Of a DNA stretch of 64,000 nt, positions 50,009-53,667 are shown piece by piece (the stretch's first letter is position 1; every line of letters starts with the position of its first letter). Made by a program: the position numbers and the translations under genes. Where the stretch lies: IMG/VR virus record IMGVR_UViG_3300038679_000357, positions 96,001 to 160,000 of that record. One strand, written 5' to 3'. The notes under the pieces were generated by a model that was not told where the DNA came from, made no database searches, and saw only the letters and a list, made by a program, of their open reading frames with translations. Source of the stretch: a virus. Lineage: Duplodnaviria > Caudoviricetes.

Positions 50009-50230
50009 TTATCTCCTTACTTTCTTTTTAGTTGAAGATCCGATAACTTTTTTCCCAGGATCTGCGTCAGCCATATTTTCTCCCATTGCCTCTGCGGCAG
50101 CTTCCACCTGCGCCCTGGCGTTCATAACGGTGAATATCTGCTGCATCTTCACGTGAGAAATTGCATCAATTTGATTTGGAGTCCATCCAAATTTCTCCAT
50201 AAACAACAACTCTAAAACTTCATCCGGCAT
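50009..50230 (-). CDS. C-terminal part of the frameshifted tail assembly chaperone (lambda gpGT-like)
   Basis: In the -1 frame relative to 50290..50742, open from the slippery site to TAA at 50009; LFMEKFGWTPNQID is typical of gpT-like domains. Confidence 0.8.
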   Translation of the reverse strand: MPDEVLELLFMEKFGWTPNQIDAISHVKMQQIFTVMNARAQVEAAAEAMGENMADADPGKKVIGSSTKKKVRR

Positions 50231-50289: not shown

Positions 50290-50742
50290 CTAGGAGTTTT
50301 TTTCCATCTCCGGCGACATATCGCCTTCTTCATCGTACAGTTTAAGAAGCAACTCGGCAACGACTGGATTAAGAGATCTTATGGTTTTTTCATCTGGCTT
50401 TGTCTTGACCCTTTCCCCCTCACTATTAACCCTCATAAAATCCCACTCAATCAAAACGGCGCACAATTTTTTAAATTCATGTTCGTAGGTATCAAGGTAT
50501 TTCATCATGCTCTCAGGATCATTCTTAATGCATTCTTTCGTAATCCTGGTATACTCACCCCATGTCAGCATCTTAAACTTTACAGTATGAAGAGAAAATC
50601 CCTTTCCCTCCAACTTAGCGATAGCTTCTTTCGTTCTTTTTGCATCAGGCAAAGATGGTACTTTTACCGCATCAACCTTCTTTGAGTCATATACTTTTGC
50701 GTAAAAACTCTTCTCAAAAAAACTATCATTATCAACAAACAT
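50290..50742 (-). CDS. Tail assembly chaperone (lambda gpG-like), 150 aa
   Basis: Lies between tube and TMP; ends ...GAA AAA AAC TCC TAG with an A-AAA-AAC heptamer. Confidence 0.8.
   Translation of the reverse strand: MFVDNDSFFEKSFYAKVYDSKKVDAVKVPSLPDAKRTKEAIAKLEGKGFSLHTVKFKMLTWGEYTRITKECIKNDPESMMKYLDTYEHEFKKLCAVLIEWDFMRVNSEGERVKTKPDEKTIRSLNPVVAELLLKLYDEEGDMSPEMEKNS
50296..50302 (-). promoter_or_regulatory. Programmed -1 ribosomal frameshift slippery site A AAA AAC
   Basis: X XXY YYZ heptamer in the correct phase, one sense codon (TCC) before the stop; the -1 frame joins the downstream ORF with no stop, giving a 244-aa fusion. Confidence 0.85.
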
Positions 50743-50782
50743 AAAAAACTCCGTTGTTATCCTATTTGATTATACAACGGAG
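50743..50782 (-). terminator. Hairpin (9-bp stem, 16-nt loop) plus U6, overlapping the promoter and RBS of the chaperone gene
   Basis: CTCCGTTGT-N16-ACAACGGAG-TTTTTT-ATG on the minus strand. Confidence 0.6.
50765..50780 (-). promoter_or_regulatory. Putative phage promoter CCGTTGTATAATCAAA
   Basis: Identical 16-mer at 63705..63720 (+); contains TATAAT; 22 nt upstream of ATG 50742. Confidence 0.7.
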
Positions 50783-50827: not shown

Positions 50828-52264
50828 TCACCATCTGAATAGCACCACCTTCTTGTTTGTGCTCCATCTTTTGCAGATCGACAGGCAGAAGAAATGGTAC
50901 ATCCACCGATTAGGCTTTAAGCCCAAAAAGGCTATCACTAATACGGCGATAACGACCCACAGATGGAGGAATCCCTTCAGACCAACCATAATAACAAGGT
51001 AACACATAATGGAATGAAATAGGACAAAGAATTTTTTATTTGGCATGGTTATTTCCCACACATCTGCGTTGTACTTACCATAATAACGTCCACACGAATT
51101 CATGGTCGGAATATGCTGTGCCCCGACATGACCACGTATCTCACAGACTCCATCGATAACCAGCTCAAAAAAAGTGTAAAAGGCGACCATAGCGCCTAGT
51201 GGGATGAGCACAAACGCACCTGGACCTTCGTGGGCTGCGTAGGAGACGGCGATCAGAAAAAACGAAATGGGAGTCAGGAAATCCTTTGCCTGCACGTCAA
51301 AATAGAAGTGATCCTCTTTCTGACGGCGATGGGCTTCCTTAACAACGGCAACCTGATTCTCAACTGCCTGCCGCTCCGCTTCATCGCGGAACTTCTTTGC
51401 ACGCATAATGAGGAGCTTCATTTCCTGTTCATCACCATACATGTATTCGTCATGCGTGTAGATATATGGAACCGCGTCGTAATAACACGTCCAATCCGCT
51501 GTCGGCAGATATTCAAACACAGGATTCGCCTCGATCATCTGCCATTTCGGCTTGACGATGCCGTGATTCACATAGTTGGCACCAACAACGATATGGCGAC
51601 GACGAATGGTGTTTGCGTCATCATCCGGATGCAGATTTTCATAATCCATCAACGGCAGGCGTGACGGCGGAATGCTATTTTCACTCGCATTGATATACCA
51701 TGGGTACATCTCCACAATCCGACGATCGATCTCATTCAGATTCTCATACGGATCACGGTAATCGAGATTTGATGGCTCCTGATGCGAAAAAGAGAAGGAG
51801 CCTTGCTCTTCCTCGGATTGGTCAGAATCATTTGGCTTTCCGAAGAGAGTATCATGATTTTTGCTGAAGGTGGAAGGGTAAGCCGACTCAGCCTGCCTTG
51901 CATCGCTCGCATAACGGTAGTCGTTACGGGTACGGGTCATCACGGCGGCGGCGGCGATGTACATGACGTCATCCGAACTGGCGGTGATCATTGGGGCTCC
52001 ACTGCCAAAACCGTCAAATGCCTGGTTTCCCCGGATCTTGAACAGGGGGGAGCCGCCGCCATTGGTCGCATAGACGGTATCGCCGATGACGGTGCAGAGC
52101 GGGGTCCCAGACACGCAGTGTCCGAGGAAGACCATATTTCCGCTGATCGTACAAACTGGGTTGGAATAATCGCTGCGTCGGTACAGACAGTCTCCCTCCC
52201 CTACGAAAATTGGACTGCCGTAATCGTGCTCGACTCCGTAACCGCCAAATAGCTGAACTGACAT
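50828..52264 (-). CDS. Moron: membrane protein with N-terminal short beta repeats and ~4 C-terminal TM helices, 478 aa
   Basis: ATG 52264 with GGAG RBS (the longer ORF overlaps the tube gene); I.G..VY.G repeats; two hydrophobic hairpins; elevated GC in the 5' part. Confidence 0.7.
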   Translation of the reverse strand: MSVQLFGGYGVEHDYGSPIFVGEGDCLYRRSDYSNPVCTISGNMVFLGHCVSGTPLCTVIGDTVYATNGGGSPLFKIRGNQAFDGFGSGAPMITASSDDVMYIAAAAVMTRTRNDYRYASDARQAESAYPSTFSKNHDTLFGKPNDSDQSEEEQGSFSFSHQEPSNLDYRDPYENLNEIDRRIVEMYPWYINASENSIPPSRLPLMDYENLHPDDDANTIRRRHIVVGANYVNHGIVKPKWQMIEANPVFEYLPTADWTCYYDAVPYIYTHDEYMYGDEQEMKLLIMRAKKFRDEAERQAVENQVAVVKEAHRRQKEDHFYFDVQAKDFLTPISFFLIAVSYAAHEGPGAFVLIPLGAMVAFYTFFELVIDGVCEIRGHVGAQHIPTMNSCGRYYGKYNADVWEITMPNKKFFVLFHSIMCYLVIMVGLKGFLHLWVVIAVLVIAFLGLKPNRWMYHFFCLSICKRWSTNKKVVLFRW

Positions 52265-52286
52265 AGGTGACTCCTTGGTTAATGGA

Positions 52287-52314
52287 AATATAGCCTCAAC
52301 CAAGTAAAAGTCAA
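52287..52314 (-). promoter_or_regulatory. Sigma70-type promoter for the moron gene
   Basis: TTGACT-N16-TATATT, directly after the tube terminator and 22 nt before ATG 52264. Confidence 0.7.
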
Positions 52315-52326
52315 GTACATGAACAC

Positions 52327-52358
52327 AAAAAAGGAGAGGCGGCATATGCCGCCCCTCC
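52327..52358 (-). terminator. Rho-independent terminator after the tail tube gene
   Basis: GGAGGGGCGGC-ATAT-GCCGCCTCTCC-TTTTTT (11-bp stem including one G-U pair). Confidence 0.9.
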
Positions 52359-52379: not shown

Positions 52380-53297
52380 TTAGAGAACGAATTCGACGCG
52401 CCCTTTTCCATGGGTGGTAACACCCTTGAAATTGATCGTCGTAACGATAGGTCCAATCTGGGATTCTGCCGTTCCCCTTGCAAAACGGACTGCTGCATAA
52501 ACCCTGAAATTCGCACCGATATCGAAGCGAATTGGGTATGCGTAATCACCGTCGTATTCATCCCAGAAATTAGCACCTTTGCCAGGATCGCGACTTGACT
52601 GTATGCCACCATCGCCAGCATAGGATGTGATCGATCCTTCTACGTTCTTCATTCCCTCAACCAGATCTCCAAACAGATCCGACTGTCCAAGAACGAATTG
52701 ACGCTGGAGGTTGTTCGATGCAGTAAACTGGAATGCCTGCAACCCATCCATATAGTCAAGTGTTTCGTAGACTGAATTCCAGTCTGCGTCATCATCGCGT
52801 TTAAGAACTGGGCTACCACTATTCTGCAGAATGCGGAACGACGACTTGTCCCATGTGACAAGTTTTTCACCCTTCGTAAATCCAGTCATATCGACTGGGT
52901 CTACGTCAAGCAACTTTGTTCCCATGATGTCAAGTGTATAGTTGACGACTTCACCAGCAGTCACATTGAATGTGAATTGGTTTAATCTGCAACCAGCAAA
53001 CGCTCTAGTAAATCCATCGAAATACTTGACGTTAATTGTAACGCCATCCTCGTAATTAGCTTCGAGGTAGTCGATGAACTCGCCGGTACTCTCAGTAACG
53101 GGTCCGTTGATTGATCCAGCCACTTCGATTTTACCGAACGCCCACGCATTGTGGGTTTCGTCACCCATGACCATGTCAGGGGCTTCGATCTGCTGTTCGG
53201 CGTTCAAGGAGCATGTATTGAACCTGATCTTCAACTTCGTGAGATCAGGACTATCAATCTGTGCGTAGCCCCTGAATCCTGGTTTAATCATAGCCAT
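52380..53297 (-). CDS. Major tail tube protein, 305 aa
   Basis: GKIEVAGSING...FAGCRLNQFTFNVTAGEVVNYTLDIMG...FQFTASNNL...GMKNVEGSI matches the siphovirus-type tube pattern; GGAGG RBS; followed by chaperones and TMP. Confidence 0.85.
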   Translation of the reverse strand: MAMIKPGFRGYAQIDSPDLTKLKIRFNTCSLNAEQQIEAPDMVMGDETHNAWAFGKIEVAGSINGPVTESTGEFIDYLEANYEDGVTINVKYFDGFTRAFAGCRLNQFTFNVTAGEVVNYTLDIMGTKLLDVDPVDMTGFTKGEKLVTWDKSSFRILQNSGSPVLKRDDDADWNSVYETLDYMDGLQAFQFTASNNLQRQFVLGQSDLFGDLVEGMKNVEGSITSYAGDGGIQSSRDPGKGANFWDEYDGDYAYPIRFDIGANFRVYAAVRFARGTAESQIGPIVTTINFKGVTTHGKGRVEFVL

Positions 53298-53321: not shown

Positions 53322-53648
53322 TTAGGAGGAGAAGTCCATCGCGGTATTCGGCTGTCCGGGGATACCGTGTACCATCCTCATGACGTAGTCATTTACGGCT
53401 TCGCCCAGACTGTCATAAGAAGTGGTTGAACCATCATACTTTGACGTACCAAGGACGAGGTCGCCTTCGCCAGTTATAACAAACGGATTAATCGTCGTAC
53501 CAGCCTTCGTCCTGGCGCTAACCGTCAACTTCAGATAGGTATCGAGAACTCCGTCGGTTTGATCAGCCAAAACTCCCTGTTCCGCGTCCAACGTGATATT
53601 CTTCTGCCTTCCAGTGGAAGGATCGAAGACCTTAATCGTGCTTGCCAT
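53322..53648 (-). CDS. Small putative structural protein, ~108 aa
   Basis: ATG 53648 with GGAGG RBS; C-ending codon bias like the tube gene; directly upstream of the tube gene. Confidence 0.6.
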   Translation of the reverse strand: MASTIKVFDPSTGRQKNITLDAEQGVLADQTDGVLDTYLKLTVSARTKAGTTINPFVITGEGDLVLGTSKYDGSTTSYDSLGEAVNDYVMRMVHGIPGQPNTAMDFSS

Positions 53649-53667
53649 ATTTTTTTCCTCCATTATC

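Follow-up and report, generated by a model that had tools for sequence, protein, structure and literature searches.

T4 Imm and P22 SieA are phage inner-membrane proteins of superinfection exclusion that are made outside the late programme. The HK97 gp15 moron is reportedly the subject of Juhala et al. 2000 and Cumby et al. 2012. It is small, missing from related phages and yields an inner-membrane protein that is expressed from the prophage (PMC3594210). Another point of reference is the beta-flower, defined as a shallow barrel in which 8-12 short strands surround a hydrophobic helix; beta-flowers were placed in the Tubby clan (CL0395) in 2023 with no function reported, while the fold of this clan has been linked to the binding of lipid head groups (PMC10584680).

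The locus described here lies in a stretch of 64,000 nucleotides that was analysed as a whole (the window), corresponding to positions 96001-160000 of a 255,142-bp IMG/VR virus record with a CheckV completeness of 97%. One relative was read as DNA: L002, a 7,017-bp metagenome contig of 53% GC and the sole locus obtained from one metagenome scan.

An insulated gene between tail tube and tail assembly chaperones

A first-pass annotation had described a textbook moron at this site, composed of a tube terminator, a sigma70 promoter, a ribosome-binding site, a 478-aa gene and a downstream hairpin. All of these elements are present on the minus strand, which carries all relevant genes of the cassette region:

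53297..52380, minus strand: tail tube gene, 305 aa, upstream neighbour (PF18906 Phage_tube_2, E 1e-14; phrog_290)
52358-52333, minus strand: intrinsic terminator after the tube gene (11-bp stem, 9 G-C pairs, T6)
52314-52287, minus strand: sigma-70-type promoter TTGACT-16-TATATT (10/12 matches)
52276-52271, minus strand: ribosome-binding site AAGGAG, 6 nt before the ATG at 52264, read from the sequence
52264..50828, minus strand: 478-aa coding sequence, stop codon included (open frame; full-length homologs; syntenic homolog in L002)
51926..52264, minus strand: residues 1-113, predicted beta-flower domain (about 5 beta-hairpin repeats and an Ala-rich hydrophobic helix)
51752..51925, minus strand: residues 114-171, low-complexity acidic linker (pLDDT < 50)
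51425..51751, minus strand: residues 172-280, conserved alpha/beta domain (no structural match found)
51290..51424, minus strand: residues 281-325, long charged helix, coiled-coil-like (model helix 281-324)
50831..51289, minus strand: residues 326-478, two predicted transmembrane hairpins (4 TM) and a basic C-terminal tail (hydropathy, charge distribution)
50782-50743, minus strand: downstream hairpin and T-run, holding GTATAATCAA at 50775-50766 and pairing the GGAG of the next gene
50290..50742, minus strand: tail-assembly-chaperone-like gene, 150 aa, downstream neighbour (60% identity to its L002 ortholog)
50009-50230, minus strand: 73-aa ORF after the 150-aa gene (phrog_9001 tail assembly chaperone, E 0.0026)

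Plus-strand ORFs at 51230..51664 and 51782..52252 were rejected as shadows of the conserved minus-strand frame. Downstream of the cassette, the 73-aa ORF is shifted by -1 relative to the frame of the 150-aa ORF, whose end reads GAA AAA AAC TCC TAG; judged by their sequences, both fit a chaperone frameshift pair of the G/GT type. Just upstream of the tube gene lies a 113-aa gene (window 53322-53663, minus strand) for which no family match was found. No other gene of the block is as well conserved (76% identity to L002). It has a GC3 (third-position GC) of 0.58 and probably encodes a virion or tail protein made in large amounts.

The signals around the 478-aa gene stand out to different degrees. 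The tube terminator folds at -28.4 kcal/mol (z -4.2), a value equalled by none of 200 shuffles. The site TTGACT-16-TATATT is the best promoter-like site within 10 kb, while that interval shows no general excess of promoter-like sites (13 found vs 21 expected). With its hexamers kept in L002, it is predicted to provide the 478-aa gene with a promoter of its own. TTGAxx-16/17-TATATT sites recur in the phage's own genome as a class to which this promoter belongs, and about two thirds of the copies fall within the non-structural, tRNA-rich arm formed by the first 85 kb. Sites of the form TTGA[AT]A-16/17-TATATT were recorded on the minus strand at genome positions 3304, 10406, 11927, 13399, 22495, 36738, 58227 and 84398, and a promoter-like site at genome position 118111 was dismissed as it falls inside a 1096-aa ORF. 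The public gene call for the locus (P0001, 505 aa) begins at ATG 52343-52345, within the hairpin loop of the terminator that follows the tube gene. As the L002 homolog lacks an upstream extension of this kind, the start has probably been mis-called.

On the other side of the gene, the hairpin CTCCGTTGT...ACAACGGAG followed by T6 (stem 50782-50749; fold z -3.1) abuts the ATG of the 150-aa chaperone gene and pairs its GGAG ribosome site. The stem is kept in L002, and hairpin and T6 together are predicted to form the cassette's own terminator. A phage promoter motif had been noticed within this hairpin as well, and the genome bears this out: its 255 kb contain 7 copies of GTATAATCAA, compared to an estimate of less than one by chance. 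The copies are found at window positions 50766-50775 and at genome positions 13049, 121098, 159710, 173382, 231479 and 246557. Several of them lie just 5' of genes, and since one directly precedes the major head gene, the motif marks the late class and is likely to be the late-promoter core of the phage. At the matching site L002 reads GTACAATCAA.

Relatives, base composition and age of the cassette

An HMMER scan that covered 1.84 billion protein representatives revealed three full-length homologs, P0002 (41% identity), P0003 (40%) and P0004 (31%), while shorter proteins share the N-terminal domain. A word-indexed protein search matched the 478-aa protein to itself only, and a profile search brought in only P0006. 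Neither the gene nor the tube protein had a match among 50,697 phage records (megablast and tblastn), and no relatives of the cassette were found in the IMG/VR viral contigs scanned by protein or profile or in the scanned GTDB genome contigs. A 17-mer of the conserved hairpin hit 7 IMG/VR loci, none of which encodes the neighbour proteins; about 14 hits were estimated to arise by chance, and these loci were discarded as chance matches.

L002 is colinear with the window, in the order GT, GT, 113-aa gene, tube, 478-aa homolog, chaperones. Identities between both loci are as follows: GT346 55%, GT475 57%, 113-aa gene 76%, tube 73%, 478-aa homolog 28%, 150-aa chaperone 60%, 73-aa ORF 54% and 158-aa ORF 52%. 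Thus the 478-aa gene diverges fastest, with 28% compared to 52-76% for its neighbours. The signals are present as well. At the equivalent place L002 has a terminator of unrelated sequence and equal strength (-29.1 kcal/mol, z -4.1). Its promoter also reads TTGACT-16-TATATT, and within a spacer that has otherwise diverged ACTTGACTTTT and GGCTATATT form islands of full identity. A ribosome site, GAGGAG, stands at the matching place, and the stem of the downstream hairpin is conserved. Since the whole cassette is found in L002 together with its signals, it is older than the separation of two phages whose tube proteins have diverged by 27%.

In three further relatives, a tube ortholog and a member of the family appear to share one contig, which does not imply that both are adjacent. 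The longest contigs of tube ortholog and family member are of equal length for P0030/P0002 (500135 bases), P0033/P0024 (70195 bases) and P0036/P0026 (331749 bases), and the tube orthologs P0030, P0033 and P0036 have 74%, 68% and 66% identity. Divergence of the family follows that of the tube: tube proteins of 74% and 73% identity go with full-length homologs of 41% and 31%, respectively, while in the relatives with 68% and 66% tube identity the similarity is confined to the N-terminal domain. Such tracking is as expected from vertical descent combined with fast evolution, judged from the proteins compared here.

These results bear on the status of the cassette. As a moron it was rightly recognized in one respect, namely that, judged by its sequence, it is an insulated unit with its own promoter. 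Because the gene is present at the same site in L002, however, the cassette is not an addition that relatives lack, which is the defining test of a moron. The check for presence or absence in related phages, which had been suggested along with the moron reading, thus goes against it in L002, and the three relatives with apparently shared contigs point the same way.

The base composition had been taken as a sign of a chimeric, recently acquired gene. The underlying observation is correct: GC is 0.55-0.605 at 51800-52200 compared to 0.42 in the window, and drops to 0.40-0.455 at the 3' end. Only 0.6% of all 400-bp segments of the 255-kb record are as GC-rich as the stretch 51800-52200. The anomaly is mostly one of third positions, with a GC3 of 0.56 for the whole gene and 0.64-0.66 for the first 150 codons, while the genome has a mean of 0.37 (sd 0.076, 100-codon windows). 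At codon positions 1 and 2, GC is raised solely in the Gly/Ala/Pro-rich first 150 codons, i.e. in the beta-flower part. However, the neighbours have a raised GC3 too (0.58 in the 113-aa gene, 0.50 in tube), and the top value among the credible protein genes of the record, 0.63, belongs to the major head gene. This head gene (phrog_2522, E 2.4e-67) is located outside the window on the minus strand of the same genome (G000, 172494-173360; L003:995-1861). As the rise is common to the head, tube and 113-aa genes, it need not mark foreign DNA, and with L002 carrying both gene and signals at the equivalent position, the claim of a recent, chimeric acquisition is not supported.

GC3 seems instead to rise with the expected level of expression, as judged from the head, 113-aa, 167-aa and tube genes. 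In likeness to the codon usage of these four genes, the 478-aa gene ranks 4 of about 159. Its codon choice correlates with the phage's own highly expressed genes at 0.48 and with the GC-rich relative L002 at 0.47-0.52, two values that are not separable, and in L002 the GC3 of the homolog equals that of its neighbours. Codon usage of such a virion-like rank would also fit a late and abundant protein.

Domains and predicted topology of the 478-aa protein

The 478-aa product founds a small family that combines a predicted beta-flower, a linker, a 110-residue domain, a coiled coil and two putative transmembrane hairpins. Short beta repeats, a coiled segment and about four TM helices had already been noted, and they were recovered as repeats of about 18 residues, as a helix spanning residues 281-324 and as four hydrophobic segments.

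Residues 1-113 align with a set of short relatives at an hhalign probability of 98.9% (E 1.1e-17, 107 columns). PF21786 is matched by 10 of the 12 members of this template set, and the alignment takes in the trailing Ala-rich helix. The direct match of residues 1-120 to PF21786 (E 4.5e-5) reaches 23.8 bits, below the gathering cut-off of 34; homologs score 15-31 bits and the relative P0010 44.6 bits, and phmmer relates the 478-aa protein to P0010 with E 2.7e-6. In a language-model atlas search the best match of the domain is a PF21786 cluster (score 0.92), whose classified members are few and mostly phages. The AF2 model shows ten short strands and a helix at 100-112 in this part (pLDDT 66-84). 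Its best PDB row is 1zxu, a weak one (E 0.17), and 1zxu is also the comparator employed by the discoverers of the beta-flowers (PMC10584680). At the level of profile homology, we thus predict residues 1-113 to form a beta-flower domain of the Tubby clan. As in the described beta-flowers, beta-hairpins are repeated about every 18 residues, with G-[ND]-x-[VI] at their tips, and a hydrophobic, Ala-rich helix follows.

The middle domain is modelled with good confidence if residues 168-285 are taken alone (pLDDT 87.5, pTM 0.80). For this model Foldseek gave no PDB match at E <= 0.001, the best VIA Z was 3.4 among 48,161 chains, and neither Pfam nor the atlas search delivered a match. As modelled, the 110-residue domain would be without a match in solved structures, which by itself does not prove a new fold. 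Residues R223-H224, N230-Y231, K238 and H271-D272-E273 are invariant in four homologs, and this polar cluster could form a binding or catalytic site.

Conservation is uneven along the protein. Among the full-length homologs, identity amounts to 40-59% in the beta-flower and 30-49% in the middle domain, compared to 14-26% in the linker and 15-21% in the TM part, so that linker, coil and TM part reach at most 26%. Although the TM part has diverged, its architecture is kept. Shorter relatives of 402 and 340 aa possess the beta-flower and four TM segments while the middle domain is missing. The AF2 model shows a long helix at 281-324. Searches with the whole-protein fold led to weak rows, or to generic hairpins of helices in the TM part, which is modelled at low confidence.

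That the gene encodes a membrane protein, as first proposed, is borne out by hydropathy and charge distribution. The four hydrophobic segments are located at residues 331-345, 350-370, 412-429 and 432-449. In 7/7 homologs the N-terminal flank, the loop between TM2 and TM3 and the C-terminal tail are basic, while the loops TM1-2 and TM3-4 are short and neutral or acidic. The positive-inside rule, the one basis for orientation used here, gives a predicted topology with the N- and C-terminus inside and few residues outside the cytoplasm.

Possible roles and comparison with known systems

Taken together, the cassette is built like a moron, yet it appears to be an old and fixed part of the tail module in a clade of large phages. 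The joint explanation that we consider best is a self-transcribed, old tail-module cassette whose early membrane protein acts at the inner face of the membrane, with a role in conflict that is a guess. We put it forward tentatively, at slightly less than an even chance of being right as a whole. Under this explanation, host RNA polymerase would transcribe the cassette from its own promoter, uncoupled from the late tail transcripts and most likely at an early stage of infection. The terminators on both sides, together with the hairpin that masks the ribosome site of the next gene, would keep expression of the cassette from activating the tail genes. Since the terminator, the distinct promoter class and the hairpin are all kept in L002, the gene would be expected to be expressed when the tail genes must stay off, and as no PF00589 integrase was found, early lytic infection would be the most likely time. 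The tube terminator may be leaky, which would allow late read-through. The protein would insert with both ends in the cytoplasm, which would bring the beta-flower and the middle domain to the inner face of the cell membrane. There it might block the DNA entry of competing phages or protect the membrane against host abortive-infection effectors. Rapid divergence (28% compared to 52-76% for the neighbours) fits a conflict role, although exclusion or counter-defence at the inner membrane is a guess at this stage. Of the functions proposed in the first-pass annotation, receptor masking is disfavoured, since the positive-inside rule places nearly the whole protein of all seven homologs in the cytoplasm.

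Other explanations were weighed against this one. A true moron would be a recent foreign and possibly chimeric gene between tube and chaperone that is expressed from the prophage, and the classic anatomy, the GC3 of the first 150 codons far above the genome mean, a codon choice that correlates equally well with the GC-rich L002 and with the phage's own genes, and the label 'provirus' given to the record by IMG/VR would all agree with it. However, we regard it as very unlikely, given that L002 has gene and signals at the same site, that three more relatives apparently share contigs with tube orthologs, that GC3 is raised in the tube, 113-aa and major head genes as well, that the excess of GC at positions 1 and 2 is confined to the Gly/Ala/Pro-rich beta-flower, and that no integrase (PF00589) was found in the 97%-complete record.

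Alternatively, the product of the 478-aa gene could be a late, abundant membrane protein for the production or release of particles, such as a platform for tail assembly, a factor in lysis timing or a virion or ejection protein. While the fixed position within the tail module, the conservation across the clade, the codon usage resembling that of the major head and tube genes and the strong ribosome site speak for such a protein, the gene has its own sigma-70-type promoter instead of the GTATAATCAA late motif and is separated from the late genes by terminators on both sides and by the hairpin over the next ribosome site. In addition, its sequence changes far more quickly than that of any neighbouring structural gene, and with 478 aa and a large cytoplasmic part it is unlike known holins, so that we consider this scenario unlikely. 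A further scenario is a membrane tether or organiser like phi29 p16.7. An early tether of that type, fixing phage DNA, replication or the phage's own actin-like filament to the membrane, would make use of the coiled coil, the membrane anchor and the cytoplasmic domains, and its Tubby-clan head would have a fold that has been connected with the binding of lipid head groups (PMC10584680). Nevertheless, no DNA-binding or actin-binding domain was recognised and the rapid divergence would be unusual for a housekeeping organiser, which leaves the tether quite unlikely.

The early inner-face membrane protein that we prefer has a more far-reaching version: a clade of phages of 250-500 kb would keep an early, membrane-anchored beta-flower protein, encoded in an insulated unit within the tail operon, as a new membrane-acting factor of exclusion or counter-defence. 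In this specific form the claim is rather doubtful. If true, it would provide the first biological role for the beta-flower fold and would add a new 110-residue domain for which no structural match was found. Independent of this claim, the locus illustrates that moron anatomy and an odd GC content are no proof of a recent arrival, as this cassette is ancestral and its gene matches the most highly expressed genes of the phage in GC signal. It also places the beta-flower domain in a setting that can be tested, i.e. a quickly evolving, membrane-anchored phage protein with its own promoter.

How does the cassette compare to described systems? No known exclusion or defence family was matched by the 478-aa protein in Pfam, PHROGs, NCBIfam and PADLOC, and no similarity in fold to any known exclusion or anti-defence protein was found. 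T4 Imm and P22 SieA are thus proposed as an analogy for its possible action, while size and domain make-up differ and the four databases reveal no homology to them. Described beta-flowers are mostly small and either stand-alone or of the lipoprotein type, whereas the predicted beta-flower here forms the N-terminal part of a 478-aa protein, in which a second domain, a coiled coil and, at the C-terminus, four TM helices follow. With HK97 gp15 the locus shares the promoter and terminator of its own, the position inside the tail operon beside chaperone genes, an inner-membrane product (here predicted) and a composition off the genome average, which here extends to the tube, 113-aa and major head genes. 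Unlike gp15, its protein comprises 478 aa with large cytoplasmic domains, has no sequence similarity to gp15, is kept at its site in relatives and belongs to a 255-kb record in which no PF00589 integrase was found. In sum, the cassette is a fixed, moron-like unit that encodes a new multi-domain membrane protein with a predicted beta-flower at its head.
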